From an uncultured Gammaproteobacteria bacterium (GTDB lineage: Bacteria; Patescibacteriota; Microgenomatia; Daviesbacterales; UBA10151): a DNA stretch of 64,000 bases. The notes under the pieces were generated by a model. That model was not told the origin of the DNA. It was given only the letters and a program-made list of their open reading frames with translations, and searched no databases. Every line of letters starts with the position of its first letter. The stretch's first letter is position 1. Where the stretch lies: the NCBI GenBank assembly GCA_964459095.1, contig CAYWKL010000001.1:21253-85252 (forward strand), in the 5' to 3' direction. This document shows positions 2,331-60,227 of this stretch, piece by piece. A program made the translations under genes and the position numbers.

Positions 2331-2332
2331 AT

Positions 2333-4395: not shown

Positions 4396-4399
4396 AACC

Positions 4400-5524: not shown

Positions 5525-5531
5525 AAAATAA

Positions 5532-6653: not shown

Positions 6654-6665
6654 ATAAGTTAATAC

Positions 6666-27378: not shown

Positions 27379-27381
27379 AAT

Positions 27382-29450: not shown

Positions 29451-29466
29451 TTTATTAATTTTATCT

Positions 29467-33430: not shown

Positions 33431-33441
33431 CTTTTATCAAC

Positions 33442-34920: not shown

Positions 34921-34923
34921 TTA

Positions 34924-35772
34924 CTATTTCTTTCCTAACTTTTGACTAATAAATATACTTAAGCGAATTAATAAGCCAATTAGAAACCCGTGGAAGATGT
35001 TTGCACTTTTTATCTGGTAATATTTCCTTCCTGTTTTCTCTAAGGGGGTAAGTTCAGATAAAAATCCACCATTACCGGTCTTTACTTCATCTTCACTACC
35101 TCCTAGTACATGAGATATTCTTGCTCCAGGAATATAGTAAACTTTAAGTCCTACTTTTTTTATACTCCTACAAAGATCTAGATCCTCATAGTAGAGAAAA
35201 TATTTCTCGTTAAACCCTCCTACTCTTTCAAAAGTATTTTTTTTAATCATCATACATGTCCCATATGCACTTTCCACCTCAATATTGCCCCCTGTCTTTG
35301 GAGCATACTCTGAGTATAAATTTTCTTTGCCAAATACATATTCTCCTATTGCGCGATTTAATGTAGGAAGATTTCTAACCGAAGGTTGTATCTTCCCATT
35401 CATTGTAAAAATTGCAGGAACAACTATTCCTACCTTTTCATTCTTACTAATAAATTCATATAAGATTTCTAAGGTATTCTTATATAGTTTTGTATCAGGA
35501 TTCAAAAAAACTAAATAACTGTTTGAAGCTATATTTGCTCCTATATTATTTGCTACAGAGAATCCAGAATTTTCAGCGCATTCGATTAATTTTATTTTCT
35601 TTTTTTCATTTAAAGCTTTAAACTCTAATATTTTCTGGCAAGTCCTATCACTTGAATTATTATCAACAATAATTAGTTCGGAATCCTCAGAGATGCTTTC
35701 AGCAGTAGATTTAAGATATTCATCTATAGTTTTTTCATTATTGTAAGTAACAGTTATTATTGACAGCTCCAT
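34924..35772 (-). CDS. GT2-family glycosyltransferase
   Basis: 'LSIITVTYNNEKTIDEYL…LIIVDNNSSDRT'. Confidence 0.8.
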   Translation of the reverse strand: MELSIITVTYNNEKTIDEYLKSTAESISEDSELIIVDNNSSDRTCQKILEFKALNEKKKIKLIECAENSGFSVANNIGANIASNSYLVFLNPDTKLYKNTLEILYEFISKNEKVGIVVPAIFTMNGKIQPSVRNLPTLNRAIGEYVFGKENLYSEYAPKTGGNIEVESAYGTCMMIKKNTFERVGGFNEKYFLYYEDLDLCRSIKKVGLKVYYIPGARISHVLGGSEDEVKTGNGGFLSELTPLEKTGRKYYQIKSANIFHGFLIGLLIRLSIFISQKLGKK

Positions 35773-36893
35773 TAGTTTTTTATTAGATTTTTTATTTTCT
35801 TTTCAAAATGTTCTTCAGAAAATATTAAAGCCTTTTGTTTAGCATTTTTTCTCAATTTTCTAATTTTTTCCTCACTACCTTTTATTATGTTTAATGTATA
35901 CTCCTTTAACTTCGAGAGGTCATTCCATAAAAAACCATTAATACCCTGATCAATTATTTCAGGTTGACCCCCTAAGTTTATAACAACAGGAATGCATTCA
36001 GCAGACATAGCCTCCACAGTTGAAATTCCAAAATGTTCAAACTTTTTAGGATTATTTTCACCAAATCCTGTTGCGTGCCAATAAATTGAGGATTTGCCAT
36101 ATAGCTTTACCAGATCCCCAAAACTTATATTTTCAAAAAACTCAACAGGGTAATTTTTTGCAAGGTTTTTAAGGTATTCAAAGTATTTTTCATTCCCTGA
36201 ACTTAAACCTCCAGCTAAACAAAGCCTCCAATCTTTTAAGCCTTTGTCAACCATTTCTTTAAAAACTTTTATCAGGACATCATGCTTTTTTGGTTTAGAA
36301 AGTGAAAAAAAACCTACAGATAGTATTTGTTTTTCTTTTTTCAAAGGGGCAAGTTTATCTACTTCAACAGGAGGATAGATTACTTCACCCGCTAGATTTA
36401 GGTATTTTTCAATATTCTCTTTTGTAAATTGGGAATTATAAATTGCTTTTGTCCAAGATTTAAGCTTTATCTTTCCAAAAAGGCCACTAGTTTTAACTAC
36501 ATCAAGTGGTGACTGAAAATGTATGAAACTTTTTTTTGCTCCTGATAAAAAAATACTCCCATCAGATAGATAGAAGAAAACATCATATTTAGTTAAAAAT
36601 AAATACCTACTTAGAGCGTTTGAACCAATTCCAAAAGGACCTTTTTTAAAATTAACTTTAGAAAGATTTAAGTCATGAAAGAGGTGTATTTTCTTTTTTA
36701 TTAGATAAATTCCAAGAGAAAATAAATGTGCATCAAGAAGCACGTCTACACTATGCTCTTTAGATAAAACTTCTGCAATTGTTAAAACGTACCTTTCACC
36801 ACCACCTGATGTATCCAAATAGGGTGTATAGATTGCAATTCTCACTCTATTAAGTATTATACTTAATTTAAAAATTACTCTACATATCCCCAA
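35772..36893 (-). CDS. GT4-family glycosyltransferase
   Basis: 'FGISTVEAMSAECIPVVINLGGQPEII'. Confidence 0.8.
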   Translation of the reverse strand: MGICRVIFKLSIILNRVRIAIYTPYLDTSGGGERYVLTIAEVLSKEHSVDVLLDAHLFSLGIYLIKKKIHLFHDLNLSKVNFKKGPFGIGSNALSRYLFLTKYDVFFYLSDGSIFLSGAKKSFIHFQSPLDVVKTSGLFGKIKLKSWTKAIYNSQFTKENIEKYLNLAGEVIYPPVEVDKLAPLKKEKQILSVGFFSLSKPKKHDVLIKVFKEMVDKGLKDWRLCLAGGLSSGNEKYFEYLKNLAKNYPVEFFENISFGDLVKLYGKSSIYWHATGFGENNPKKFEHFGISTVEAMSAECIPVVINLGGQPEIIDQGINGFLWNDLSKLKEYTLNIIKGSEEKIRKLRKNAKQKALIFSEEHFEKKIKNLIKN

Positions 36894-38362
36894 AGAGATT
36901 CAGTAAGATTTAAATCCTCAGCAGAGCAAAGCTCCTTAAGGTTTTGAAAATCCTTTTCTCTAGGCTTAACTACTCCAATTATTCCTGAACGGAAATCTAT
37001 TTTCTCATCAGATAAATAAAAAGGTAAAGATATATTATAGACTGGTACATCAAGGGATGGCTTTGTTAGTTTAAGACCATTCAGATAAAAAATATACCTG
37101 AAGCCAAATTGGTTCCCAATTGATGTTATATATGAAATTCCAACACAAGGAAAATTTCTTTTTTTACTATCCTTAAGAATATATGAAGTAATTTCTTGTC
37201 TTTCCTTATATCCAAAATTTGCACTGTCTTTTATATTTACTAACAGATTTAAATTATTTACAAGTATTGCAAAAAACAATATAAGAATTATACGTATTCC
37301 AATTTTTTTGAATTTAACAATATATGCTAGCGCAAATACTATTATTATAAGAAATAAAGTGTCAATATTTGTAAAATAATATTCAGAAATCCCTTTACTT
37401 GAAAAACTAAAAAATAAAACCATTGATGCAAACCATGTAAAAATGATCAGAAAAATTCTTTTGCTTATAAATGCTTTGTAAGAAAGAAAGAATAAAATTA
37501 ACAGGAGTGCTGTCGCAACTATTAAATTTGTTGGAAAGCTGCCTCGCTCTGGAAAAAATAATAAGCCATACGAGTTTGAACTTACGTGAGATAAAACTTT
37601 AATAAATTTTTCGGTGAAGTTGGAGCTTTCCTGACTAAGAATAAAAGAATTAAAAATCGCTTTTAACTGAATAAAACCGTGCCTTGTTTCAAACAGTATT
37701 AATGGTACTACAGGAACTAAAAAAGCTATAAAAGTTTTAATTAGATCTTTTTTAGAAGGTAGCTTTCTGGCCAAAAATAAAGCAACAATAGCAGAGAGTA
37801 GAAGTGGTGCTTCAGCTAAACTGATATGCCAAATAAGTCCAGATAAAAACCCCAAAAGAGGTAAGAAATTTAAATTACCTTTGGCTATATTTACAACTGT
37901 ATAAAAAAACCAGATCTCCCAGATAAACATAGTATTTGTTGGAACTACCCAGCGATCATGCAAAACTCGAGTAAGTAAAACTGATTGCAAAAAAGCCGCC
38001 ATTAAACCTACCCAAACATTAACAAGCTTCTTAAAGATATAAAAATAACTTAAGATTGTTAGAATAGAAAGAACCAACCCAAATAATATTGCACCTGTTG
38101 GAAGCATATTAGTTATCAAAAAAAATGGAACAAGTGAATAATAAAATAACGGGCCAATGAAGATACCTGTTTGGCTTGTTTCTTGCCCTATCAACCTTAA
38201 GTGTTTGTTTACTACAATGTCCTTTACTATCCAGGAATAGATATCCCCATCATGTGCATATTCAAATCTTTCGTATGCTTTGTAAGCTCTAAAAAAAACT
38301 GAAATACAGATTATTATCAATAAAAGAAGCAAAATCTTTTTCCTGAAAAAAAACTTTTTCAT
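36875..38362 (-). CDS. Polytopic membrane protein, PMT_2-like GT-C candidate (paralog of 58007..59503)
   Basis: '…FEYAHDGDIYSW…LIGQETSQTGIFIGPLFYY' parallels 'FLGDEGRDALVVKK…LGPPTSVGNMYLGPLYYY' in 58007..59503. Confidence 0.5.
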   Translation of the reverse strand: MKKFFFRKKILLLLLIIICISVFFRAYKAYERFEYAHDGDIYSWIVKDIVVNKHLRLIGQETSQTGIFIGPLFYYSLVPFFLITNMLPTGAILFGLVLSILTILSYFYIFKKLVNVWVGLMAAFLQSVLLTRVLHDRWVVPTNTMFIWEIWFFYTVVNIAKGNLNFLPLLGFLSGLIWHISLAEAPLLLSAIVALFLARKLPSKKDLIKTFIAFLVPVVPLILFETRHGFIQLKAIFNSFILSQESSNFTEKFIKVLSHVSSNSYGLLFFPERGSFPTNLIVATALLLILFFLSYKAFISKRIFLIIFTWFASMVLFFSFSSKGISEYYFTNIDTLFLIIIVFALAYIVKFKKIGIRIILILFFAILVNNLNLLVNIKDSANFGYKERQEITSYILKDSKKRNFPCVGISYITSIGNQFGFRYIFYLNGLKLTKPSLDVPVYNISLPFYLSDEKIDFRSGIIGVVKPREKDFQNLKELCSAEDLNLTESLWGYVE

Positions 38363-39172
38363 TTAAAGCTTAAAGGAGAAGTTGTTCCTCAGGAGTTCTT
38401 CATCTATTTCTTTATAAATTTGTTCTCTTGTTTTAGGTTGTTGAAACTCCCAAAGTCTTATATAAGTAATAATTAAGCTGAATACTTGTAGTATTGAATC
38501 TATCACCCCAATAGTTCCTGAGAAAAAACCTTTTTTTATAATCCCTTGATTTATTGTTTCAGTAAGTAAAATTCTAAGCAGTCTCCACCCAACCATTTTT
38601 GGATGTCCTGATCTTAATCTTAAGTTTGCATCTATTTTTGAGTAGTCGAGACTTTTAAGAACTATTTGATCAATATTTCTGTGGGTTAAGTGTAGAAGGG
38701 ATTTTTTTGTATATCCTAAGGATCCTTTAAATGTAGCATACTCATGTACACTCCCTACCCAACTTATAAAATCAGATTTTTTAATAAGTCTTATAACCCA
38801 GTCTGGCCAAAAGGGACCATATTTTTCTTCCTTACCAAAAATTATATTTTTTCTTGACAGTGCATATGCTGAGTGCTCTGAATTAGAAACCAAAGTAAGT
38901 ATTTCTTCCTTTAAATCCTTTAGCACTCTTTCATCAGCATCTACATATAAAATCCAGTCTCCTTTAGTTTTATCAAATGCAAAGGTTCGCAAACTTGAAA
39001 AATCTTCCATTTCTACAGAAAAAATTTTTTCTGTGTATTTTTTTGCAATATCTTTAGTTTTATCAGTTGAAGCGTTATCAACAACAATTATCTCATCAGC
39101 CCATTTAACAGATTCTAGACATGTTGAGATTTTATCTTCTTCGTTTTTTGCTATGACTGCAACGCTTAACAT
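38363..39172 (-). CDS. GT2-family glycosyltransferase (KdtX/WaaE-like)
   Basis: 'LSVAVIAKNEEDKISTCLESVKWADEIIVVDNASTDKT'. Confidence 0.75.
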   Translation of the reverse strand: MLSVAVIAKNEEDKISTCLESVKWADEIIVVDNASTDKTKDIAKKYTEKIFSVEMEDFSSLRTFAFDKTKGDWILYVDADERVLKDLKEEILTLVSNSEHSAYALSRKNIIFGKEEKYGPFWPDWVIRLIKKSDFISWVGSVHEYATFKGSLGYTKKSLLHLTHRNIDQIVLKSLDYSKIDANLRLRSGHPKMVGWRLLRILLTETINQGIIKKGFFSGTIGVIDSILQVFSLIITYIRLWEFQQPKTREQIYKEIDEELLRNNFSFKL

Positions 39173-39192
39173 TATTAAAATTTATCATATCA

Positions 39193-40038
39193 TTACAAAC
39201 TCCCTTTTCCAAACTTACATAAAAGAAAATCTATAAAAGCTTTGCGTTTTGCAGAATTCCTTAAATTCCTTAGTGCCTCCCTAATTAATGCTAATCTTGT
39301 TCGAAATGGTAAAAACTTTGAAGCAAGAAGTAATCTATTTCTTGTAATATAGTAGTCCTGTAAGGAGGAACCAAGACCTGTTGATTTTGCGTTATCATGA
39401 AAAATAAGTGCCTGGGGAACATACATTATTTTAAAACCTGCTTTTTTAGCCCGCAAACAAAAATCCGTGTCTTCATAATATAAAAAGTATCTCACATCAA
39501 ATATACCAATTTTTTCAAACACTTTCGCCCTTACAAATATTGCTGCGCCGGTTGCAAAGTCCACTTCTAAATCCTTATCAAATTGACCTTCATCTTTTTG
39601 ATCTACTCCGATATGAGACCCTAATACATTCTCAGAATCAAATTCTCCACCCGCATACCAAATTATTTTAGAGTTTGCAAAATAAATTTTGGGGCTTGAG
39701 ATGTCTGAGGAGTGCTCCTTAGACTTCTCAAGAAGTACCCGAATAGTATTTTTTTCAATATAGGTGTCTGGGTTTAAAATAAAAACATACTCATTTTTTT
39801 CTTCTAGTGCTTTTTTTATACCAACATTATTTCCACCACTGTAACCTAGATTTTCACCTGTTTGCATAAATGTAAGATTATTCTTTTTTGGAAGTCCTTC
39901 CTCCAGGCCATCCCCTGAGTTATTATCCAATACAATGATTTGTAAATCCTTATAAGAAGAATTTAAGACTGACCTTACACACTTTAAGGTTAAGTCCTTA
40001 ACTTTGTAATTCAAAATTACAACAGCGATTTTTTCCAT
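39193..40038 (-). CDS. GT2-family glycosyltransferase
   Basis: 'IAVVILNYKVKDLTLKCVRSV…IIVLDNNSGDG'. Confidence 0.8.
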   Translation of the reverse strand: MEKIAVVILNYKVKDLTLKCVRSVLNSSYKDLQIIVLDNNSGDGLEEGLPKKNNLTFMQTGENLGYSGGNNVGIKKALEEKNEYVFILNPDTYIEKNTIRVLLEKSKEHSSDISSPKIYFANSKIIWYAGGEFDSENVLGSHIGVDQKDEGQFDKDLEVDFATGAAIFVRAKVFEKIGIFDVRYFLYYEDTDFCLRAKKAGFKIMYVPQALIFHDNAKSTGLGSSLQDYYITRNRLLLASKFLPFRTRLALIREALRNLRNSAKRKAFIDFLLCKFGKGSL

Positions 40039-40943
40039 CAGTTTGAAATTTTATTTTTGGCTTTTTGTACAAGCCTTTTGAGGAGATTTTTTGGAAGATT
40101 GCCATATTTAAACCAATAATCAATTTCCTTTTGCGCTTGCCTTTTTTCTAAATCCAAATCAGCTAGCGAAATCTCTTTCTCCTGGAACTTTTCATATTCC
40201 CACATTCTTAAATATAGAACAAAAAAAGAAAAAGCCTGAAGTACGCTTAAGGCTAGACCATGCAGCCCATCTTTGAAACCTTTATTTGCAAAAAAACGCC
40301 CTAAAAACTCAGAAGTGGGTTTTTTTATTAGATCTTTCCAGTCAAATTTATATCCTTCTTTTCTAAGCTCTTTTGCTTGGATTTCACTGTAACGGATCAT
40401 TCTTTGTAAGTACTGGCTAATTGAATTGTAGTGATAGTGGATTATTGCCCATCTTTCCTCTGGTGGTACTTTTACACCCTGGCCTTCTACTTTTGGTTTA
40501 CTATGTATTTTGTTCCCCCAAAAACTTCTGCCTTTTCTAAAAAAACGTATTTGATAGTCTGGCCACCACAAAGAAGCCTTCATCCATTTTCCGAAAATAA
40601 TGTTTTTTCTTGGTATCTCCAGGTAGTTTGATACTGTGTGTTTGTTTACAAAATCCTTTATATAATCTGCTAAGGAAGAAGGTATTTCCTCGTCTGCATC
40701 AACTATTAAAACCCACTCGTGAGATGCTTTTGAAATCACAAAATTTCTTGCTGGCTCAACATATCCTATTCTCTTGTGAAAAATAACTATCGCTCCTAAT
40801 TTTTTTGCAATTACTGGGGTATCATCATCAGAGTGCATATCACAAACTACAATCTCATCTACCCAGCTTAGTGAGTTAATCACCCTCTCGATAGTTTTTT
40901 CTTCATTAAAAGTATTTATTACAGCAGTAATTTTTCCATTCAT
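40038..40943 (-). CDS. GT2-family glycosyltransferase (KdtX/WaaE-like)
   Basis: 'ITAVINTFNEEKTIERVINSLSWVDEIVVCDMHSDDDT'. Confidence 0.75.
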   Translation of the reverse strand: MNGKITAVINTFNEEKTIERVINSLSWVDEIVVCDMHSDDDTPVIAKKLGAIVIFHKRIGYVEPARNFVISKASHEWVLIVDADEEIPSSLADYIKDFVNKHTVSNYLEIPRKNIIFGKWMKASLWWPDYQIRFFRKGRSFWGNKIHSKPKVEGQGVKVPPEERWAIIHYHYNSISQYLQRMIRYSEIQAKELRKEGYKFDWKDLIKKPTSEFLGRFFANKGFKDGLHGLALSVLQAFSFFVLYLRMWEYEKFQEKEISLADLDLEKRQAQKEIDYWFKYGNLPKNLLKRLVQKAKNKISN

Positions 40944-40965
40944 GATATTTCTACTATACTAAAAT

Positions 40966-42582
40966 TTAGTTCATCTTGAAAATTAATTTCTCTTCACCTA
41001 GTGGATTTGATATCGCTTGATATCCCTCTAATTTATCTTTATCAGTATTTGAAGTAATAAAAAGTGACTTTCCTTCTAGATTTTTGGCAAAATCTTCAAA
41101 ATCTTGGGCAGGTAAATTACCTATATAAACATTATCAAATTTTTTAAATTCTTTATTTAACAATTTGTTTCTTTTTTTATTTTGGGAAATAATTTTTTCA
41201 GGTTTTTGATCTGCAAAAAGAGGGTAAGCATATTCAATATTATCTATCTTGTCAGATAGTATTACAAAATCAAACTTTTTTTTATTAATGTTTGCAAATT
41301 CTGAAGCTTTCTTTGCAGAATATGACCAAAAGTCGCCGTATAGATTTGGTGACAAAAAGAAAAGTTTTTCTATAAAGAAAATAAGTTGCATTCCAATAAG
41401 AAAAATCAAGCAAAAACCAATTACTTTTCCCCATTTTAAAGAAAATAGATAAATAAATCCTGAACCTGAAGCTAAAATTAGCGGCGGGAGCATAAAAGAA
41501 CTTCTTAAGAAATGAGTTACACCCAAAAAAGCGGTTGGCACAGGTGAAATTAGAATCCAGAAAAAATTTAAGAAAAATATTTTTTTACTCTTTTTGAATA
41601 AAAAGATTAAACCAAAAAAAAGAGCAATAATTTGGGAAAAATATATTGCTCCAAAATTTGCCATATTATGACGAGGGTTTCCATCACCGCTAAAAATAAG
41701 AAATTGTGGCGAAAAATTTTCAAAATATGATTTTAAAAATAGCACAAAATATTCATTAGCTTTGTTGTGAAAAATTGATGAAATTTCTCTTGGTAATGAG
41801 CTCAACGATCTTTCTTCATTGATTTTTTGAATTACAAATGTATTTTTTTCTGGATCCGAAAAAATGTTTAACTTTGAAAATCTTTCCTCAGATCCCAGAT
41901 AAATAGTTTGATAAAAAGAGGCAAAAGCAAAAGACCCTAATATCAACACAGCAAAAATTACCTGCAACTTAACTTTTAAAAGATTTGAAATCTTATTTGT
42001 AAAAAGAACCAATGTAGGGATGAATAAAAAAAGAGTTAATTTATAAGTTGGATAAGTATGAATAGCAAATCCAAAAAGAAGGGCAGAGAGTGGATAATAC
42101 CAACCATTTTCTTTTCCTTTAAGGTACAGGAAAACTCCAAGTACTGATAAAAATAAGGCAAAGTGAGCTTCAAATCCTGCTCTACTTAAAGATATGTCCC
42201 AGGTTGAAATAGCCATTAGGGAGGCTGCAAAAAGACCGGCTTTTTCAGAAATCAACTTTTTGCCAATTAAAAAAATTAGAAGTACTAAAAGGACCCCAGA
42301 CAATGCTGACAGGCTTCGTACACCTAAGGTACTATCTTGAAAAAAAGCAACAAAAGGGATTGATGCATAGACATATACTGGGGGTCTACCACCTCCCATT
42401 GAAAAAAATAGTGGAAAACTTTGGCCTGTTTGATCTTTTCCTGTTTGGTAAAGAGATTTTGCATCCAATACTATAGTCAACTCATCTCCATAAAGTGCGG
42501 GTGGATTGTTGGAAAGATCAATAAATCTTAAAAAAAAGCTAAAAAGTAAAATTAAAGCAAGCAGTATTGTTGTTTTTTTCAT
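40966..42582 (-). CDS. GT-C glycosyltransferase, PMT/ArnT-like, paralog 6
   Basis: 'PPALYGDELTIVLDAKSLYQTGKDQTGQSFP'. Confidence 0.7.
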   Translation of the reverse strand: MKKTTILLALILLFSFFLRFIDLSNNPPALYGDELTIVLDAKSLYQTGKDQTGQSFPLFFSMGGGRPPVYVYASIPFVAFFQDSTLGVRSLSALSGVLLVLLIFLIGKKLISEKAGLFAASLMAISTWDISLSRAGFEAHFALFLSVLGVFLYLKGKENGWYYPLSALLFGFAIHTYPTYKLTLFLFIPTLVLFTNKISNLLKVKLQVIFAVLILGSFAFASFYQTIYLGSEERFSKLNIFSDPEKNTFVIQKINEERSLSSLPREISSIFHNKANEYFVLFLKSYFENFSPQFLIFSGDGNPRHNMANFGAIYFSQIIALFFGLIFLFKKSKKIFFLNFFWILISPVPTAFLGVTHFLRSSFMLPPLILASGSGFIYLFSLKWGKVIGFCLIFLIGMQLIFFIEKLFFLSPNLYGDFWSYSAKKASEFANINKKKFDFVILSDKIDNIEYAYPLFADQKPEKIISQNKKRNKLLNKEFKKFDNVYIGNLPAQDFEDFAKNLEGKSLFITSNTDKDKLEGYQAISNPLGEEKLIFKMN

Positions 42583-44567
42583 ATTTTATAAATTCTTATT
42601 CCTCCTTCATCATAAATCAGCTCAAAACTTTTTGGTACGTTTAAAAGTTCTTGATCGGGTTCTAAATATAAATATCTAGCAGAATATTTCTCGGCAAAGT
42701 TTTCTAGCTTTTTTCCGGTATCATCCTTAAAGGCCTCTTCTCTAATTCTTAATAAGTCATCTATTCTGTACCCCATTATTTTGACCTGTTCCTCATCCGA
42801 TAAAAGTGTCTTTCTTCCTGAAAATGCAGAAACATAACCGGTGTCGTACCAATTGTATATTGGTTTCGGGGGATAAGTTTTAGATCCTTTATATTTATCA
42901 AAAGGAACTGTAAGAATAATATCAGAAGGATTAGAAACCTTATTCAAAAAGGTAAGAGCATCTAAAGATTCATAGGTTATTTTTGAAAGAGGTTGATTTG
43001 TATAAAATTGCAATAATAATCCAACTTGCGTAGGAATAGAAAGTATTATTATAAAAAATGAAATGACTATTTTTAATAATTTGTGCCTTAGGGCTTTTAT
43101 GAGATCTGCTACTGTAATCGCTGCAAGAAAACCGAAAAGCAAAAGAAAGTACTGGTTAAATTGAATTGTATTCCAGGCAACTCCCTTTTGTAGAAAAAAC
43201 ACAGGAATAAAGAAAGAGAGCGTTGTTATAATAATAAAAAATAAATTAAAAAAATCTTTATATATTTTTTTGGAGGTAAGTTTAAAGTAGGTAAAAAATC
43301 CTATAAACCTCATGCCTAAATTGCCAAAAAGGAAAATCAAAAATGCAGTTGCTTCAACTTGAATAACTCTTTTCCAGTTATTTTCTGCTATGTATGTTTG
43401 TCTTCTAAGTTCAAGATCTAACCAATTTAACCGGTCAGGAGCAACCACCATTGTTCTTATAAACCACCATGGCTCATACACTAAAAATTCCTTAGAATTT
43501 TTGCTATTTGGCAAATAAATAAGCATTGAAAAAATCAACGTATACAAAAAAATAATTGAAATCTGGAGCTTTCTTTTTATGATCAATTCAAATAGTCCTG
43601 TTGCTAAAAGCCCCCCTAAAATTAAAAGACCAGCATAAATTTTAAATTCAATTATTATTGCACCAAAAAAAATGCTAAGCCAAAAATATGTTTTGTTTCT
43701 TTCTTTAATAAAATTAAAAAAGGAGATTAAAAAGGCAATTAGAATAATAAATGCTGACGCGTGAGGAGGATTTCCTAACACAGAATGAGTTTGGGAAACC
43801 CAAAAAATAGTTTCACCTGAAAGGTTATGATTTTGTGGGATTGTAAGTAAGTAACCAAAACTTCCTACAAAAAATACAAAAAACATCGACCAAAGGCCAG
43901 CAATTTTACTTCCAGACCACTTTCTAACAAGTAAATAGCTTGAAAGACCAAGAAGAAGAGAAAAAACAACAGGCATTAATCTAAAATAGATATCTAAATT
44001 AGAAAATTTATAAAGTCTGCTCATCTCTGACATTAATAAATCTGAAAAAAAATGATAATTTTGTAGAGGCTTTCCTAAATATTCAGGATTTTTAAAAGGG
44101 AAGTCTCCCCTTTTTAATTCTTCCATTAAACTTAAATGCCAAACACCATCATGGCCGTGTGAGCTGTAAAAATAAATCCCATCTTCATATTTCATACCTG
44201 AAGGAGCATTAACAGCAACCTGAAAAATTATTCCTAGGATCAGTAGAGTAAAGAAAAATTTATTATTCTTTATCCATCCTCTCAGCAATTCAAAATCAAG
44301 CTTATTTAAGGATTTAATCAAAACTAGCAAACCTAAGACCGGAATCAGCCAAATAAGAAATTTTAAATAAAGAAATGTTAAAACGTATGCACTGATTGTA
44401 AAAAAAGCAATTCCAAAAATGCTCGCTATAGTAAAGTCCTCCAAAAATCCTCTTGAGCGATAATTAATTAATCTAAGAATCACATAAGATGGAAGGGTAA
44501 AAGAGATAAGTGAAACAGTTAGAAATAAAAATAGAAGTAAAAACTGAATCAAAATATTTTCAATCAT
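42579..44567 (-). CDS. Polytopic membrane protein of an unclassified family with a 'GHDGVWH' motif (paralog of the C-terminal half of 44560..47982)
   Basis: 'FYSSHGHDGVWHLSL…NYHFFSDLL…FIGNLGMRF' versus 'GPNGHDGVWHVAL…NYHYLYDLL…FIGNLGVRF'. Both C-terminal soluble tails are alike. Confidence 0.5.
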   Translation of the reverse strand: MIENILIQFLLLFLFLTVSLISFTLPSYVILRLINYRSRGFLEDFTIASIFGIAFFTISAYVLTFLYLKFLIWLIPVLGLLVLIKSLNKLDFELLRGWIKNNKFFFTLLILGIIFQVAVNAPSGMKYEDGIYFYSSHGHDGVWHLSLMEELKRGDFPFKNPEYLGKPLQNYHFFSDLLMSEMSRLYKFSNLDIYFRLMPVVFSLLLGLSSYLLVRKWSGSKIAGLWSMFFVFFVGSFGYLLTIPQNHNLSGETIFWVSQTHSVLGNPPHASAFIILIAFLISFFNFIKERNKTYFWLSIFFGAIIIEFKIYAGLLILGGLLATGLFELIIKRKLQISIIFLYTLIFSMLIYLPNSKNSKEFLVYEPWWFIRTMVVAPDRLNWLDLELRRQTYIAENNWKRVIQVEATAFLIFLFGNLGMRFIGFFTYFKLTSKKIYKDFFNLFFIIITTLSFFIPVFFLQKGVAWNTIQFNQYFLLLFGFLAAITVADLIKALRHKLLKIVISFFIIILSIPTQVGLLLQFYTNQPLSKITYESLDALTFLNKVSNPSDIILTVPFDKYKGSKTYPPKPIYNWYDTGYVSAFSGRKTLLSDEEQVKIMGYRIDDLLRIREEAFKDDTGKKLENFAEKYSARYLYLEPDQELLNVPKSFELIYDEGGIRIYKI

Positions 44568-47500
44568 TTCTTTTCGAATAAATAATTACATCTTCGTTTT
44601 CAAAAAGAACTTTGTAATTTTCTCCATCTAGAAAACTGTTGTAAAACTTAGGGATATAAATATACTCAATTCCATTGTCAGTAAGAAACGATTTTGCTTC
44701 TCCTTTTGATGCAAAAAATTCTTTTGACTGAATTCTTCTTTTTTTATAATCAATTCCTAAAATCTCATTTTGAACTTCATCTTCCAAAAAAACTGGTTTT
44801 TCAGAAAAAGCTGAAACATATGAAGAGGTATCATATGCGAAAAGGGGCAGCGGGTCAGACAATTTTATTTTCGTAGAAGATTCATAAGGATATGTTAAGA
44901 CAATTCCTTTTTCTTGTTCCTGTAAAAAATCTAACCCTTTAAGTTCACCACTGCTAATATAGGTATGCGGCAGAGGATATAAATAACCTTTTGCAACAGC
45001 TACAGAATTTATTGGTGCTAATATTAGTATGAATCCTAAAAGTAATATATTTAATATTGAAGGTAATTTTAGATAAATAAATGCAACAAAAATCCCTGCA
45101 TAAATGGCAGAGAAATAAAGAAAATAATAAAAAAATTGAATTGTATTCCAAGGAGTTCCTATTTGTATAAAAAGAAGAGGTAAAATAAAAGAAAAAATTA
45201 AAATACAGAAAGTTAAAAATACCAAACTATTTTTTAAATACTTAAGATAAAGTAAACCTATCAAAACAAAAAATCTTACCCCTAGGTTTCCTATAAAAAA
45301 TAAAAATACACCTAAGGATTCAACTAAAAAAAACTTAAACATCTCTCCTCTTTGCAGATACGCAGATCTTGCTCCAGACAATCTTATCCAACCAATTCTG
45401 TCAGGGGTATCAATCATTGTATGAACAAGCCATAAAGGAGCAAATAAAAAGTTTTGAGAAATTTTAAAATTAGGAATAAAAATTCCAAGTGACAAAATCG
45501 AACCCAAAAGTAAAACAAATATCAAATATATTTTTTTTCTAAAGAATTGAAAAATCATTAAAATAAAAACGGATATAAAAATGAGAATCGATGAATAAGC
45601 TTTAAAACCAATTAGCCCCCCCAAAAGCATTCCGCTAACAGCTATCATCCCCCACTGTCTAGTATTTAACTTGCTTATTAGGAGCAAACTGGCAATAACT
45701 AAAATGAATGAGATCGCAAAAGGCGGATTTAAATTAAAAGATATCGATTGATTTGCCCAAAAAGAAGATTCTCCAGATAAAACTCTTTCTTTTATCCAAG
45801 TTACAACCCACCCAAAACTACCTGCAAAATATACAAAGTAAAGTGGAATTAAATATAAGGAAATGGTGTTTTTAATTTTCTCAAATTTTAGGGGTAAATT
45901 ACTTATAAAACTTACTACACCTAATCCCAAAAGAATTGAGAATAAAATAGGAAAGAATCTAAAAACTAAATCCTCTGTTGAAATGAAACTCAAACTGGAC
46001 GTAGTTGCTATTAAAAGATCATATAAATAATGATAGTTTTTTAGAACTTCACCAGAAAAAACGGGATTTTCTGGGGGTAGGCCATTTTTTATTTGATTTG
46101 CTAGTGCAACATGCCATACTCCATCATGACCATTAGGTCCCCAAAAACCCATTCCATAAATAAATGAAAGACCACTTTTAAAGGTGGGCATCACTTGGAA
46201 TATTGTTCCTAAAATTATTAAACCTAATATATATAAATTAGGCATTTTTAGGTTAAATTTATACTTTCCCTTATAAATAATACTTAAAATTAAAAACACC
46301 AAAATATAAAAAAAGAGGAGAAGGTTAAGTTTAAAAAAGCCAGCTATATAAGAGACTAATGTTAAACTCGTTAGTCCAATTACAGTTGATAAGAATACTT
46401 CTTCAACTAAAGTATTGTAGATTTTTGAAATGAACTTTCTAACTATGAAAAGTCCTGGAATAAAAATCCCAATAATAAAAAAGATTGTGAATTTAAGTGA
46501 GTTTAAAATTGCTTGAAGTGGTTTCCAAAGTAATTGCGTATCTAAAACATTTGAATTTTGTTTAGGCTCCAGAGTATTTTTTAAGGCATTTAAAATGACT
46601 CCATCAATTGAAGAAATTTGTTTATCAATGGAAATATCACGAGTCATAAAAGCAATCTCTCTATTATTCCCTGCCTGATTTTTATACGATATTAAAAAGT
46701 CACTGTTAATCCTTTTGTAATTTAAATCACTTATCTTACCTTCATCTATAACTAATTTTTGCCCAAAACTTACTTCATCTAAAACTCTTGTTGCAGATGT
46801 TGCAAAATTTAGTGTCTCACAACTGTGTTTAAAACAAAGTTCTTCTTGATTGTCCAAATATTGTCTAACATCTCTCAAAATTGAACCATCTCTTCCATAA
46901 AACCAGGCAGCTCTATAAAAAACATCCATAAACCAGACAGATTTATTTTCAGTTCCTAGTGGATCATTTGAAACAATTATTTGTTCAGGGGATAGATTTG
47001 GAAAAGTTTTTTTGTAAATTTCAGAGAATTCGCTCATGGTAAGAAAGGTTAGCTTTCTTTTTTTTCGATCTTGATCCAAAACGTCCATTTGCTTCGTATA
47101 CTCCCCTTTATACTTATTCCATGAATATGAATTCTCAAGCCCTACAACTATTTGATTAACCTGATTATATTGTTGATCTAGATATAGACTTGTTATTTTT
47201 TTAAAATAATTAATATCTAAATCATGAAAATCTATATAATCATTTGGTTGAACGCTTAAAGTACTCTCTTCAACTGCTTTTCCATAACCATTCACTGGAT
47301 CCCTTGGGGCCCATTGAGTTATTACAACTGGAATTTTATTTTCTAATGTTTGAGCCGGCAAAAGAGTATGAGTCTTTTGAGGGTAATAAGGATAACCAAA
47401 ATATTGGCCCCAAATTTGATAATTATCAGTTGAGTATTGATCTGAAACTATTAAGGCAGCGCTGATACCGTATTTTTCGTACATGTAATTCAAGGAAAAA

Positions 47501-47982
47501 CTGTCTATAAACCATGCCCCAACTGATTTCGGATAATCACCAAATGTATCTTTGAATTTACTAAAGGAGGCATCTATTAATTTAACTCTATCTTCCTTTG
47601 AATAACCTGTTAAAAATACACTTCCTGCCCAATGCCAATTCCCGGATTCGTTGTATTTGATATTAGCAAGACTAGCAAACTGTGGAGTTACTTCCAGAAA
47701 TACTCCCTTTTCATAACTCCTTTCGTTTTTTAGTAAATTTATTATTTTTGCATTTGTAAAAACATCAGGCCTTATCAAAAATGTTGCAGGAATATTTCTC
47801 TTTTTTAACTCATCAAGCTCTCCTTTAACTGCATCTTCGGGTTTTTGATCTTTAGGATCCCAAAAATCTGCTCCTCTTACGGGATTTACTACAGTAACAT
47901 AGGAGTTAGAAGCTGCAAGAATCTTATTGGGGTAAAGAAGAGTTACTACTAAAGTTAAAACAAATAAAGTTATTTTAAACAT
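44560..47982 (-). CDS. 1140-aa protein: signal peptide + conserved extracytoplasmic domain (shared with 13946..15967) + 'GHDGVWH'-family polytopic membrane domain + C-terminal soluble tail
   Basis: See the two paralogy observations above. N-terminal 'MFKITLFVLTLVVTLLYPNKILAASNS' signal peptide. Confidence 0.5.
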   Translation of the reverse strand: MFKITLFVLTLVVTLLYPNKILAASNSYVTVVNPVRGADFWDPKDQKPEDAVKGELDELKKRNIPATFLIRPDVFTNAKIINLLKNERSYEKGVFLEVTPQFASLANIKYNESGNWHWAGSVFLTGYSKEDRVKLIDASFSKFKDTFGDYPKSVGAWFIDSFSLNYMYEKYGISAALIVSDQYSTDNYQIWGQYFGYPYYPQKTHTLLPAQTLENKIPVVITQWAPRDPVNGYGKAVEESTLSVQPNDYIDFHDLDINYFKKITSLYLDQQYNQVNQIVVGLENSYSWNKYKGEYTKQMDVLDQDRKKRKLTFLTMSEFSEIYKKTFPNLSPEQIIVSNDPLGTENKSVWFMDVFYRAAWFYGRDGSILRDVRQYLDNQEELCFKHSCETLNFATSATRVLDEVSFGQKLVIDEGKISDLNYKRINSDFLISYKNQAGNNREIAFMTRDISIDKQISSIDGVILNALKNTLEPKQNSNVLDTQLLWKPLQAILNSLKFTIFFIIGIFIPGLFIVRKFISKIYNTLVEEVFLSTVIGLTSLTLVSYIAGFFKLNLLLFFYILVFLILSIIYKGKYKFNLKMPNLYILGLIILGTIFQVMPTFKSGLSFIYGMGFWGPNGHDGVWHVALANQIKNGLPPENPVFSGEVLKNYHYLYDLLIATTSSLSFISTEDLVFRFFPILFSILLGLGVVSFISNLPLKFEKIKNTISLYLIPLYFVYFAGSFGWVVTWIKERVLSGESSFWANQSISFNLNPPFAISFILVIASLLLISKLNTRQWGMIAVSGMLLGGLIGFKAYSSILIFISVFILMIFQFFRKKIYLIFVLLLGSILSLGIFIPNFKISQNFLFAPLWLVHTMIDTPDRIGWIRLSGARSAYLQRGEMFKFFLVESLGVFLFFIGNLGVRFFVLIGLLYLKYLKNSLVFLTFCILIFSFILPLLFIQIGTPWNTIQFFYYFLYFSAIYAGIFVAFIYLKLPSILNILLLGFILILAPINSVAVAKGYLYPLPHTYISSGELKGLDFLQEQEKGIVLTYPYESSTKIKLSDPLPLFAYDTSSYVSAFSEKPVFLEDEVQNEILGIDYKKRRIQSKEFFASKGEAKSFLTDNGIEYIYIPKFYNSFLDGENYKVLFENEDVIIYSKRND

Positions 47983-49453
47983 TTCTTAGAGATTTTATAT
48001 CGTTTTTGATTTTGTCTTTTCCAAAAATAAAGATCAATGTAAAATAACAGCTCACCCCTATAAATATTGCCAGTATTAACGAAAAAACCTCTCTTACAAA
48101 GAAAATTGAAAATGTATAAACCAATATTGCCATGAGCAGTGAGGAAATTGTGGGGAGTGCAACAGCCTCTAAAACTTTTATAGCTAAGACTTTTTTGACA
48201 TAAATAATCGTTAGTACAGAGCTGAAAGAAATTACAAATGAGGAAACTGCCACCCCTTGAAAACCTATTACTAAACTAAGTATTGGTGTCAGTATAAAAG
48301 TAAGAACAGTCCACATTACCATTAACTTCAAAGTAATTTTTATTTGCCCTATTGCATTAAGGGTATTTGTAAATGTTGTAGAAATTACAGCCCAATAAGT
48401 CGAGAATGCAAAAAGGTAAAAACTAAAAACAGCGGGTTTCCATTTATCAGAAACAACAAATTCAACTAAAGATGGTAGAATTGCTCCAATCCCAAAAAGA
48501 ACTGGATAAACTAAAAGCGAAGTTATAAAAAGTGATTTTTCAACTAATTTAGATAAATTTTCTTTGTCTTCTTGCAGTCTTGAAAAAGCAGGAAAAGTAA
48601 TTCTTATAACAACATTCATTATTTCAAGAGGTAAAAGTGCCAGTGATTGGGACCATGTAACATATCCAACACCGGATGTTCCTATTATCTTTGCTACAAC
48701 TAGTGGGACAAGACGGTCCTTTGCTAGAGCCAACAAAGTATTTAGCTGGAAAGGCACCCCAAAAGATAAAAGTCTTTTTGCTGAAATTTTATCAACACCT
48801 ATGCCGATTTTAACCGGGGCAACTATATATATTGCTAATACTCCTAAAAATGATCTGGAAAAGGAAGCAATTGTAAAACTCCAAAGATCAAAATTTAAAA
48901 AAACTAAAGCAATCAATAGTCCGTTAAAAACAAATGTTTCAAGAATTTCCACCCCAACAAGAGGTTTAAAATTTAAATTACGCTCAAGCATTACTGAGGG
49001 TATAACTTTAAGAGAAGTTAAAAAAAAGCAGATCCCAAGTACTCTTACCAACCACACCCCATTTTCATCTAAACCATAAAATGACGAAAGAAGTGGGGCT
49101 AAAACAACAATAATAACACTTAGTGCACTAACAAGAGTTTGTTGAATTGTAAAGGTTGTTTTTATATCCTGATGAGTTATCTCATCTTTTTTTTGTATTA
49201 AGGAAGCTCCTAAACCTACATCAGAAAAGAAAGCAAAAAAAGAAATGACTGCAGTAGCTATATTAAAAACTCCTAATGTATCAACAGGTAAAACTCGAGC
49301 AAGGATTATATTTATTGTCAAAAACCCTATTGCTCGAAGAGCAATTTGTCTTGCTGTGAGAGTAATGAAGGAAGATTTTATTCTTCCTTTAATCTCAGAA
49401 AGACTTAAATAAGCAGAGCTTTTCTTAGAATAAGCAGAACTGGATAAATCCAT
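47975..49453 (-). CDS. Wzx-like (MOP-superfamily) oligosaccharide flippase / polysaccharide biosynthesis protein
   Basis: 'ARQIALRAIGFLTINIILARVLPVDTLGVFNIATAV' N-terminus. About 14 helices over 492 aa. Confidence 0.7.
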   Translation of the reverse strand: MDLSSSAYSKKSSAYLSLSEIKGRIKSSFITLTARQIALRAIGFLTINIILARVLPVDTLGVFNIATAVISFFAFFSDVGLGASLIQKKDEITHQDIKTTFTIQQTLVSALSVIIVVLAPLLSSFYGLDENGVWLVRVLGICFFLTSLKVIPSVMLERNLNFKPLVGVEILETFVFNGLLIALVFLNFDLWSFTIASFSRSFLGVLAIYIVAPVKIGIGVDKISAKRLLSFGVPFQLNTLLALAKDRLVPLVVAKIIGTSGVGYVTWSQSLALLPLEIMNVVIRITFPAFSRLQEDKENLSKLVEKSLFITSLLVYPVLFGIGAILPSLVEFVVSDKWKPAVFSFYLFAFSTYWAVISTTFTNTLNAIGQIKITLKLMVMWTVLTFILTPILSLVIGFQGVAVSSFVISFSSVLTIIYVKKVLAIKVLEAVALPTISSLLMAILVYTFSIFFVREVFSLILAIFIGVSCYFTLIFIFGKDKIKNDIKSLRNV

Positions 49454-49480
49454 AAGTTAATTTTAACAAAGAAGCTTAGT

Positions 49481-50752
49481 TCATACATTTCCCAAATTCT
49501 TTTTTGAAAAAAATGAGTAAAAATAATAAGTGCAGGCCCCAACAAAAATACTTTGGATAATACTTCTTGAGAAATTATAATCTAAGCTTATATTTAGAGA
49601 CTGCCAAATACTGACTGAATCATATAAATTAGGCGCAATAGGAGAGAAAAGTCCTATTGTTAGTCCGGGATCAAAAAAGAAAAGGGAAGCAAACCAACTA
49701 AAAAGAATTAAACTTAAAGGAATTAAACTCTCAAATCCTGAACGGATTAGGTGAATTGCCAAAAATGGTGTTACCCATAGTAACCATTGAGGATGAAAGT
49801 GAGTAAAAATAAAAAAAGACAAAAGTATAATTAAAAAAATATTCCATAAGTTTTTTCTCTCAATACCCTTTATAGAGATAAAGATATAAAGAAATATTAA
49901 AAGGGTAGGAAAAAGTAATATTGACTCGCCTCCTGAAATTGGAACTGCGGCGTAAAAACTTTTCAAAGTTTGATTTGCTACTAACGCTGAGTTCTTGAAA
50001 CCACTTGAGCTTAAAAAGGGGAGTATGAGTATTATATAGGGAATTAGCCCTAAGAAAAAAATTCCTGCTCTTTCAAAAAAACTCTTTTTTATTAAGGCTA
50101 AGGATACTAAAAGAAAAAGTGGGTAGATTTTAAAAGCTATACCTAACCCTAAACTTATTGAGGCAAAAGACGTAAATTTTGAATATTGAGAGCGTGCTAC
50201 AAAGTAAATTGCCAAAATTGAAAAAAAAGTAGGGATAATATCAAATTGTCCCATCATATAAGTTGCATAAATATCAATTGGATTAAACATCCAAAACATA
50301 AGTATTAAAAACTTATCCTTTTTTTCTGTAAATAATTTCATTAATAAAAAGGCTACACTTAAATCAAAAATCAAATAGGGTATTTTGAGTGTCAAAAGAT
50401 GCACGAGAAGGGAAGAGGACAAAAGAGTATCTTTAATGTTGATTAAAAAGTTAATTCTAAACTCCTCACCTACAACTAAAGCAAAAGGTGCTCCAAAACC
50501 TCCAAGGAAAAAATATACAGCAGGGGGATAGTTAAAATTAAACTGCCCAAAGGTTTTATTTATTGGATTCCCCTTTGATAAATTTGGAAGATAATCATAA
50601 AAATTTAAAGGATTAGTTTTTGATAAAACATATCCACCTAGATCAAAAATTTGAATATCAGAGTGATAAGTAAAAGGGGAAATAAGCAACCTTAAAAGTA
50701 TACCTACTATTAAAATGGCAGCGAATTTGTTCACTATTAAATCATATAACAA
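49481..50752 (-). CDS. Polytopic membrane protein, possible GT-C-type (DUF2029-like?)
   Basis: Hydrophobic throughout. 'FTYHSDIQIFDLGGY' early loop. I recognise no firm family motif. Confidence 0.4.
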   Translation of the reverse strand: MLYDLIVNKFAAILIVGILLRLLISPFTYHSDIQIFDLGGYVLSKTNPLNFYDYLPNLSKGNPINKTFGQFNFNYPPAVYFFLGGFGAPFALVVGEEFRINFLINIKDTLLSSSLLVHLLTLKIPYLIFDLSVAFLLMKLFTEKKDKFLILMFWMFNPIDIYATYMMGQFDIIPTFFSILAIYFVARSQYSKFTSFASISLGLGIAFKIYPLFLLVSLALIKKSFFERAGIFFLGLIPYIILILPFLSSSGFKNSALVANQTLKSFYAAVPISGGESILLFPTLLIFLYIFISIKGIERKNLWNIFLIILLSFFIFTHFHPQWLLWVTPFLAIHLIRSGFESLIPLSLILFSWFASLFFFDPGLTIGLFSPIAPNLYDSVSIWQSLNISLDYNFSRSIIQSIFVGACTYYFYSFFSKKNLGNV

Positions 50753-52418
50753 CTCTTTTAAATTTAGAACCCAAACTTATGAAAAACAAAGCAGTAATCA
50801 AAGATATAATTGAAACGATATCTAATGCCACTTTCCATGGTATTTCAGTAAAATAAATTCTTATTTTACTTTTCCCTGCTGGAATTTTCACGGTAATTTC
50901 ACCAAATTTTTCACCTGGGATGATTTTAGTTGGATTGTTATTCAACTGTGCAACCCAACCTGGAAAAAAATATTTATTAAATCTTAATATTCCAGAATTT
51001 GAGCTTTCTAGTAAAAATAAGTAATTAAATTCTGAATTCTTTCTTGTATTTATAATCTTAAGATCAGAGTAAGAAACAATAGGATAAAGTTTATTAGGTC
51101 TTACAGAAGTCTCCTTTGGAAGCCTTAGATATTCTTCTTGAGTGTCTTGATATTCAGTATTCGCCTTTGGGTAAGGGATATATCTTTTTAAATAATATTC
51201 GTCAGTTCTCCCAAGAAAATCTTCTGGTCTAAAGTAATTAAAACTTATAAGTATTGTTAGAAATATCAAAATTATTCCCGCTAAGTTAGAGTATTTAAAA
51301 AATTTAAATGGAATTATAAAAAATGGTAGGAAGAATGTTGTTAACATTAAAAAGCGCCAGGGAAACTGAAAATATGGGAAAAACGGAAAATTTGACCAAA
51401 TAAAACTTGACCTAAAATTCATCAAAAAAATTGCTATCAGAAGGGAAAGAATTGCCCAAATAAGAAGAGATTTCTCTGTTAAACTAGTTTTTTTCCAAAG
51501 TGATATTAACAACAATATACCTGTTATAAAGGCAAAAATACCTGGTAAACCGAGGAAAAACGAAATGCCATCATATGGGCCGGGGACTGAGGCACCATAC
51601 CCCCAGTACGGTTTAAAAAGTTGCAAAAGGGAAGGGAAGTGGTCAGCAAAATTAAACACAGTATCGTATTTCATTAACCTGCTCTCTGTTATTGCAGGCA
51701 ACCAAAAATAAATGCTCACTAATAGTCCAAGAAAAAAACCAAAGAAAGTTTCAACTAAAGGTTTTAGGGAAAATCTAACATTTATTAATCTTGTTAAACA
51801 AAATAAAAGAGCAAAAGGAATAAACATATACGCGCTTATATTGTGCGACAAGATAAGACCCCCTACTGATAGTGCACAAATCCCTATCCATTTAAGGTTT
51901 CTTTTTTGTTTTGTTATTTTTATTATTGAAAGAATAATTAAAGGTAAAAAAATAAAGGCAACTGTCTCCCCTATTGCCCCTCTTACATAAATATCTACTG
52001 CTCTGTATGGGGCATATATATAAATTAGTGCTCCTGCAAGAGATAAAAGCCTGCCGACAAACTCTCTAAGTAAAAAAAACATTGCAAATCCTGATGTAAA
52101 CAAACTTAAAGCAAAAACAGCTTTTATACTATCGACAAAGTTTAAGCTTAAAAGATGAAACATCTCACCAAAATAAAAAGGTAAGGGAAAAACAAAATTA
52201 AAAAGAGGGTAACCAAATCCAAAACTTAAATCTGGCACAAATCTTGGTGGAATCTGCCCAGCTCTTAGTGTTCTATCCATCTCAAAAAGCCAAGCAATAT
52301 GCAAATCGTCAGACGCTCCGTAGTACCCGGGTACAAGAAGTGAAAAAGTAGTTGGACTAATTAAAACAAACAGTAAAATCCACCAATATTTATTTAGAAA
52401 ATATTTTTTGCTTTCCAT
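50742..52418 (-). CDS. Polytopic membrane protein, unclassified GT-C-like family with 'DDLxI…RWVPD…GFGYP' motif, tandem paralog A
   Basis: 'PGYYGASDDLHIAWLFEMDRTLRAGQIPPRFVPDLSFGFGYPLFNF'. C-terminal beta-rich domain plus a terminal TM. Confidence 0.5.
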   Translation of the reverse strand: MESKKYFLNKYWWILLFVLISPTTFSLLVPGYYGASDDLHIAWLFEMDRTLRAGQIPPRFVPDLSFGFGYPLFNFVFPLPFYFGEMFHLLSLNFVDSIKAVFALSLFTSGFAMFFLLREFVGRLLSLAGALIYIYAPYRAVDIYVRGAIGETVAFIFLPLIILSIIKITKQKRNLKWIGICALSVGGLILSHNISAYMFIPFALLFCLTRLINVRFSLKPLVETFFGFFLGLLVSIYFWLPAITESRLMKYDTVFNFADHFPSLLQLFKPYWGYGASVPGPYDGISFFLGLPGIFAFITGILLLISLWKKTSLTEKSLLIWAILSLLIAIFLMNFRSSFIWSNFPFFPYFQFPWRFLMLTTFFLPFFIIPFKFFKYSNLAGIILIFLTILISFNYFRPEDFLGRTDEYYLKRYIPYPKANTEYQDTQEEYLRLPKETSVRPNKLYPIVSYSDLKIINTRKNSEFNYLFLLESSNSGILRFNKYFFPGWVAQLNNNPTKIIPGEKFGEITVKIPAGKSKIRIYFTEIPWKVALDIVSIISLITALFFISLGSKFKRVVI

Positions 52419-60204: not shown

Positions 60205-60227
60205 GTTTACTATGCTAACATCAAATT

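Follow-up and report, generated by a model that had tools for sequence, protein, structure and literature searches.

A stretch of 64,000 nucleotides (nt) of contig CAYWKL010000001.1 (assembly GCA_964459095.1), called the window below, encodes three membrane proteins that share two modules, here named X and Y, and a common C-terminal tail. On the strength of a predicted structure, we assign Y as the catalytic module of a formerly unclassified family of GT-C glycosyltransferases in Microgenomates-type bacteria of the Candidate Phyla Radiation (CPR). The deeper conserved unit across genomes is a pair of Y paralogs, Y1 and Y2, coupled to a Wzx flippase, and X is a lineage-specific accretion on Y1.

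All three open reading frames (ORFs) lie on the minus strand of the window, which has a GC content of 31%. The 662-amino-acid (aa) Y2 protein (42579..44567) consists of four N-terminal transmembrane (TM) helices, a GT-C core (42999..44261) with the motif GHDGVWH at 44136..44156, and the tail (42582..42998). The 1140-aa X-Y1 fusion (44560..47982), whose internal limits were taken from custom hidden Markov models (HMMs), starts with a signal peptide, followed by the extracytoplasmic X domain (aa 22-491, 46510..47919; X HMM E = 1.8e-131). Four TM helices located by hydropathy scan (aa 492-582, 46237..46509) join the outer X to the GT-C core of Y1 (aa 583-1002, 44977..46236; Ycore HMM E = 2.1e-126; GHDGVWH at 46111..46131). 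The fusion ends in a tail (aa 1003-1140, 44563..44976), an alpha/beta globular domain that is predicted to be extracytoplasmic and resembles the CC unit of oligosaccharyltransferases (OSTs). The 673-aa X-only paralog (13946..15967) also begins with a signal peptide and contains X (14528..15910), two TM helices (14321..14515) and the tail (13949..14320).

By BLASTP, residues 102-646 of the 662-aa protein aligned with residues 582-1112 of the fusion (33% identity, E = 2e-66), and residues 2-396 of the 673-aa protein with residues 3-405 of the fusion (39% identity, E = 1e-83). The tail common to the three proteins gave no significant match by BLAST. Profile-profile comparison of tail-only alignments with hhalign linked the X-only tail to the Y-only tail (97.7% probability, E = 2e-12) and to the fusion tail (97.6%, E = 5e-12), and the latter two to each other (E = 1e-28). 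The alignments of X, Y and tail therefore define the architectures X-TM4-Y-tail (1140 aa), TM4-Y-tail (662 aa) and X-TM2-tail (673 aa). A first-pass annotation, made from the letters of this DNA alone, had proposed these three combinations of two modules and a tail in ORFs at the same coordinates, and the paralogy of both X and Y that it proposed held under formal alignment. The motifs GHDGVWH, NYH[FY] and GNLG[MV]RF that it listed occur in both Y copies; its longer version, FIGNLG[MV]RF, fails in the 662-aa copy, which reads LFGNLGMRF. The TM anchor it gave the 673-aa protein was right as to membrane anchoring, which is provided by two TM helices (residues 494-519 and 525-549).

Sequence searches left Y outside any named family; the first-pass annotation had not been able to place it in one either. 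No Pfam or NCBIfam model matched Y at E values up to 1, including the STT3 models and Pfam's PTPS_related (PF10131) and YfhO (PF09586). Neither phmmer nor a 107-sequence profile matched Y to any PDB sequence at E values up to 10, and a Pfam model covered Y in none of 36 diverse fused relatives. The AlphaFold2 model of the 662-aa protein, built from 107 homologs, had a pLDDT of 92.9 and a pTM of 0.94. When this model was used for a Foldseek search, the top ten matches were all OST catalytic subunits (AglB with E = 5.7e-9, STT3A/B, PglB and yeast Stt3), with alignments spanning ~590-780 columns; DPY19 and AftA ranked next. Two structure-search methods both put OSTs first, with full-length alignments that included the C-terminal domain, and Wzy, WaaL and SEDS proteins appeared in neither list. 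The earlier guess of a GT-C- or polymerase-like module is supported by this ranking. The model of Y shows both the multi-span membrane fold of GT-C enzymes and the architecture of OSTs, an N-terminal TM region followed by a C-terminal globular domain with a CC unit.

The nearest link by sequence profile was a weak one, to the three PTPS_related paralogs in the window (hhalign, 76% probability, E = 2e-5), over 388 columns that reached the C-terminal domain and left the region of the first outer loop (EL1) unaligned. Genes of this PTPS_related/YfhO type belong to the same conserved cluster and lie directly upstream of Wzx. We know of no solved YfhO-type structure. The hhalign match of Y to the PMT_2 paralogs in the window reached only 43% probability over 52 columns and was set aside.

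We tabulated residue frequencies in 70 Y2, 37 Y1 and 87 diverse Y sequences (194 in total), given here in Y2 numbering. D140, Y171, H172 and K309 were conserved in all 194. EL1 carries a single invariant Asp, D140, within G-H-D-G-V-W-H, with W143 and H144 conserved at 96-100% and no second acidic residue. Across the family, E252 was conserved at 89-100%, R420 and N466 at 90% or more, and Q469 was invariant; D378/R379, R389, E405 and R420 were invariant in Daviesbacteria Y1 and Y2. The equivalents in Y1 (D620, Y650-H651, K794, E738, D861-R862 and R903) were confirmed in the fusion. Members of the GT-C superfamily have an acidic motif of the DxD/DD/DE type in the first extracytoplasmic loop, shortly after TM1, and conserved basic and polar residues in later outer loops (PMC6801728). 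The conserved basic and polar residues of Y all fall at predicted outer loops or helix ends, as in other GT-Cs. The loop-1 motif is only half present: D140 (D620 in the fusion) stands alone in G-H-D-G, beside a conserved His.

The closest overall resemblance of Y is to STT3/AglB/PglB (CAZy GT66). OST catalytic subunits are defined by the TM region and the C-terminal CC unit together with two DXD motifs, a WWDYG motif and a DK or MI motif, the last of which lies on a kinked helix and is identifiable only through 3-D superposition (PMC3703281). Y differs from these enzymes in several respects. It has a single invariant Asp where OSTs have DXD, many of its members have three extra N-terminal TM helices, Y1 carries an N-terminal DUF3863-like ectodomain, and the Y tail also exists without a GT-C core, in the 673-aa protein. 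DXD motifs are not a feature of the family; D192 was conserved at 100% in Daviesbacteria Y1 and Y2 and at 49% in the diverse members, and it lies outside any DXD. Nor is WWDYG a family feature. Positions 573-577 read WYDTG in Daviesbacteria Y2 (90-100%) and YDSTA in Y1 and were variable in diverse Y (W 17%, D 19%). Y as a bona fide STT3 was rejected for the absence of these two motifs from the family. With an OST-like architecture and without OST motifs, Y is therefore best described as a GT-C of OST-like build rather than a member of GT66, and a sequon (N-X-S/T) acceptor is unlikely because Y is without the Ser/Thr-pocket motif. The sequence WYDTGY of the window's Y2 (aa 573-578, 42849..42866) recalls the WWDYG(Y) of OSTs; Y1 has YDSTAY in its place (aa 1047-1052, 44827..44844).

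The hydropathy scan placed TM segments of the fusion at residues 496-514, 525-543 and 552-570, plus one at 580-598 that runs into the start of the GT-C core; the K/R-rich loops at 515-524 and 571-579 are cytoplasmic. With four TM segments separating X from the first outer loop, X and the loop bearing GHDGVWH are both predicted to face outward. By a crude hydropathy scan, X and the core are separated by two TM segments in the shorter fusions P0391 and P0402, and by one above threshold in other shorter fusions, leaving an even count there uncertain. The two TM helices of the 673-aa protein bring the chain back outside for the tail, and the ten helices that follow EL1 in the Y model likewise predict an outer tail. 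X, EL1 and the tail are thus all predicted to be at the outer face.

The gene for a Wzx-type (MOP, Polysacc_synt_3) flippase (47975..49453, minus strand; PF13440, E = 1.4e-55) lies immediately upstream of the fusion gene in the window, and its stop overlaps the fusion-gene start by 8 nt (ATGTTTAA). The fusion and Y2 genes also overlap by 8 nt, and Y2 overlaps the following PMT_2 gene by 4 nt. A same-strand Wzx gene was found immediately upstream in 36/36 X-Y fusions with upstream sequence, at gaps of -50 to +15 nt, mostly -8, -4 or -1, and a Y gene was among the next two labelled genes after the fusion in 35 of the 36. One 8.8-kb Logan contig carries P0369, a single 1639-aa ORF in which Wzx (aa 15-493) is joined to X, the TM linker, the GT-C core and the tail. 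This is either a Rosetta-stone fusion or a frameshift or assembly artefact at the normally overlapping stop and start. Among the GT-Cs of the cluster, which is conserved throughout a major CPR lineage, Y has the tightest link to the flippase.

Each of the three proteins had more than 120 full-length orthologs, the named ones from Candidatus Daviesbacteria or Microgenomates; those of the fusion were ~50% identical to it. An exhaustive HMM search of 1.84 billion representatives (clusters at 50% identity) returned 2011 Y-family clusters at E ≤ 1e-3 and 1006 at E ≤ 1e-30. Their lengths peaked at ~560 aa (core and tail), ~650 aa (with N-terminal TMs added) and ~1010-1160 aa (with X added). At least 503 Y-encoding stretches were present in GTDB species representatives, and 77 retrieved loci came from Daviesbacteria, Woesebacteria, other Microgenomates and other Patescibacteria. 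Labelling the ORFs of 80 loci with custom HMMs yielded 71 proteins of TM-Y-tail, 40 of Y-tail, 38 of X-TM-Y-tail, 1 of X-Y-tail and 2 of X-tail architecture.

Two or more Y genes lay within ±8 kb in 62 of these 80 loci. The two genes belong to distinct clades, Y1 (the fusion type) and Y2, both of which keep the candidate catalytic residues. All X-Y fusions were of the Y1 clade, with Y2 as the partner. X is fused to the N-terminus of Y1 in Daviesbacteria-type genomes, Y1 without X was found in loci L010, L071 and L081 and in Woesebacteria loci, and in L029 a separate X-tail gene sits between two Y genes. These arrangements bear out the first-pass proposal that X is sometimes fused to Y and sometimes its separate partner, and functional coupling of X with Y is supported. 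One locus, L050 (DATKWK010000035.1), is titled Bathyarchaeia archaeon. Its six labelled genes were 50-70% identical to those of the Patescibacteria loci L053, L061 and L068 and syntenic with them; mis-binning of its 394-kb contig is more probable than the presence of the Y family in an archaeon. L005, L007, L009 and ~35 other loci came from metagenome-assembled genomes titled 'uncultured Gammaproteobacteria ... binchicken' and had a Daviesbacteria- or Woesebacteria-type locus; these titles look like placeholder taxonomy.

We propose that a glycan would be built on a polyprenyl-diphosphate (polyprenyl-PP) carrier in the cytoplasm and that the co-translated Wzx would flip the lipid-linked glycan outward. 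Y1 and Y2, possibly as a heteromer, would take the flipped glycan at the outer face and, acting in an OST-like or ligase-like manner, move the lipid-PP-linked glycan en bloc to an acceptor other than N-X-S/T, for which a surface protein and a wall polymer are candidates. X, on the same side, may bind, trim or otherwise modify the glycan or the acceptor. The tail may be a portable docking or substrate-binding module, which would also let the X-only protein join the machinery. For the substrates and chemistry we infer en bloc transfer by Y1 and Y2 with a probability of about 0.5, the case in which they are a polymerase or ligase included.

The conservation of D140, Y171, H172 and K309, the outer topology, the invariable Wzx coupling of the fusions, the pairing of Y genes and the triple fusion P0369 support en bloc transfer, as do the cytoplasmic GT4 and GT2 transferases and the amino-sugar nucleotide genes in the same cluster. 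Several points weigh against it. The DXD and WWDYG motifs of OSTs are not features of the family, small GT2s of the polyprenyl-P-sugar-synthase type abound in the cluster, which would fit single-sugar GT-C chemistry, and no initiating phosphoglycosyltransferase was identified within the window. P0369, moreover, comes from one metagenomic contig and could be a frameshift artefact.

The main rival, which we consider possible, is that Y1 and Y2 are single-sugar GT-C transferases like PMT, ArnT, ALG or AftA and use polyprenyl-monophosphate sugars from the GT2s of the cluster. The Wzx-flipped glycan or a protein would then be decorated residue by residue. Such enzymes would accord with the single-Asp active site and with the many GT2 synthases close by, but the 17 other GT-C genes in the cluster could serve single-sugar steps, and both structure-search methods placed OSTs, not single-sugar enzymes, first over the full length of Y, C-terminal domain included. 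The consistent coupling to Wzx also speaks for a larger substrate, as flippases of this type carry lipid-PP-oligosaccharides.

A sub-case of en bloc transfer, in which the acceptor would be a glycan or lipid instead of a protein, appears quite unlikely to us. Y1 and Y2 would here be functional analogues of Wzy or WaaL that join Wzx-flipped repeat units or attach them to a wall anchor. The location right after Wzx fits this role, Pfam recognised no Wzy, WaaL or LCP gene in the window, and a peptide N-X-S/T acceptor is made less likely by the lack of the WWD motif that binds the sequon. It is very improbable that Y is a transporter (an outcome the first-pass annotation had allowed for), a non-catalytic scaffold or a pseudoenzyme: its lack of a sequence family assignment would permit this, but a transporter was rejected on the low Foldseek probabilities (≤0.15) and TM-scores (~0.1) of MFS and other transporters, and outer-loop polar residues, the EL1 Asp among them, that are 100% invariant in ~190 sequences at 25-60% identity are not expected of a pseudoenzyme.

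Extended to the whole cluster, en bloc transfer leads to a broader picture that we regard as speculative and rather doubtful. Microgenomates-type CPR bacteria would perform surface glycosylation resembling that of the endoplasmic reticulum, with assembly of the glycan in the cytoplasm, flipping by Wzx, extension on the outside by more than 12 GT-Cs, a final sequon-independent en bloc transfer by Y1 and Y2, and processing by the fused DUF3863-type domain.

The fold of X was taken from a structure model of the 673-aa protein (pLDDT 92.0), according to which X is an exported 7-stranded beta/alpha barrel plus beta-sandwich of the glycoside-hydrolase/deacetylase superfamily. The X profile matched 3lm3 by sequence (E = 2.9e-8) and many X orthologs have precomputed PF12979 matches; a direct Pfam and NCBIfam scan of the window's own X proteins returned nothing. 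The 3lm3 match and the PF12979 assignments of the orthologs thus make X a distant member of DUF3863 (PF12979; PDB 3lm3, BDI_3119, 'putative glycoside hydrolase/deacetylase'), which it matches in both sequence and structure at 17% identity. X differs from DUF3863 in being exported via a signal peptide and tethered to the membrane or fused to a GT-C. Of the first-pass description of X as a novel extracytoplasmic domain, the location stands and the complete novelty does not.

Conservation of R34, D67, E92, W111, D155, D176, Q177, D181, W186, W218, R221, D222, D239 and E273 was ~84-100% in free X (79 sequences) as well as in fused X (93 sequences); in fused X, H200 is replaced by Asn and D275 by Ser. 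The hallmark of CE4 enzymes is an Asp-His-His metal triad with TFDD and H(S/T)xxH motifs. This triad, the CE4 metal site, was absent from both sets, and X as a canonical CE4/NodB deacetylase was rejected on this ground. With its conserved carboxylates and Trp residues and no triad, X therefore looks, from its sequence conservation, like a functional sugar-binding or sugar-processing site. ArnD-ArnT, Pmt1-Pmt2 and EmbA-EmbB offer analogies only, for X with Y1 and for paired GT-Cs; unlike the extracytoplasmic X, ArnD works at the cytoplasmic face, and it is not fused to ArnT. In the X-only family, the tail carries an invariant CxxC pair (C581-C584, window 14216..14227) that is missing from Y tails and might form a disulfide or bind a metal in the stand-alone X protein only.

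GT-C enzymes make N-glycans, O-mannose, GPI anchors, mycobacterial arabinans and lipid A modifications. To our knowledge, new GT-C families are rare and mostly recognised only from structures. The superfamily itself is already known; judged by the curated libraries and the literature searched, the Y family, its motif-less OST-like design, its portable CC-like tail, its fusion to DUF3863 and its invariant coupling to Wzx are undescribed. The Y family has no Pfam or NCBIfam model, and no description of it was found in the PMC open-access and bioRxiv literature searched, including under CPR oligosaccharyltransferase, Microgenomates GT-C, or Patescibacteria/Daviesbacteria with STT3, AglB or PglB; DUF3863 was not mentioned there either. 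CPR surfaces are presumably important for an episymbiotic or attached lifestyle, and Y1/Y2 offers a testable candidate for the enzyme that makes the last transfer of CPR surface glycans. If the broader picture of ER-like surface glycosylation holds, the pair would be a new class of bacterial oligosaccharyltransferase, and DUF3863 would gain a functional context, the first of its kind. An OST-like scaffold without sequon-reading motifs would be relevant to OST evolution and to glycoengineering.

The window holds a glycan supercluster of ~50 kb, with at least 19 GT-C genes, small GT2s (one fused to a GtrA domain), GT4s, two Wzx genes and amino-sugar nucleotide genes. The GT-C-type genes, at 17991..60240 (minus strand) and 60228..61373 (plus strand), comprise 13 PMT_2/PMT-like, 3 PTPS_related/YfhO-like and 1 PIG-V-like gene in addition to Y1 and Y2, an exceptional density for 64 kb. 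Downstream of Y2 is the gene for a 538-aa PMT_2-type GT-C (40966..42582, minus; PF13231, E = 1e-9), a conserved neighbour: most Daviesbacteria-type loci have a pmt-like gene after the Y pair. The gene order of several PTPS-like genes, Wzx, XY, Y2, PMT_2, GT2, GT2 and GT4 was found again in other genomes. The second Wzx-type flippase (16750..18003, minus; PF01943 and PF13440) lies two genes upstream of the X-only gene, separated from it by a GT2 gene (15964..16710, minus) that overlaps the X-only start by 4 nt. Both X genes of the window are therefore flippase-proximal.

Between Wzx and the PTPS-like genes lies a 423-aa multi-TM ORF (49481..50752, minus) with no Pfam or NCBIfam match, which is not at that position in the orthologous locus L001 and may be another unclassified membrane glycosyltransferase. 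A 171-aa TTG-start ORF antisense within the Wzx gene (48564..49079, plus) is most likely a spurious product of AT-rich DNA. The plus-strand block at 856..9401 encodes a GFO/IDH/MocA oxidoreductase, two DegT aminotransferases, an epimerase/dehydratase and a hexapeptide-acyltransferase-GT2 fusion, which suggests synthesis of a di-amino or N-acyl sugar. These sugar genes are followed by the gene for a 911-aa protein that bears an F5/8 type C (discoidin) domain.

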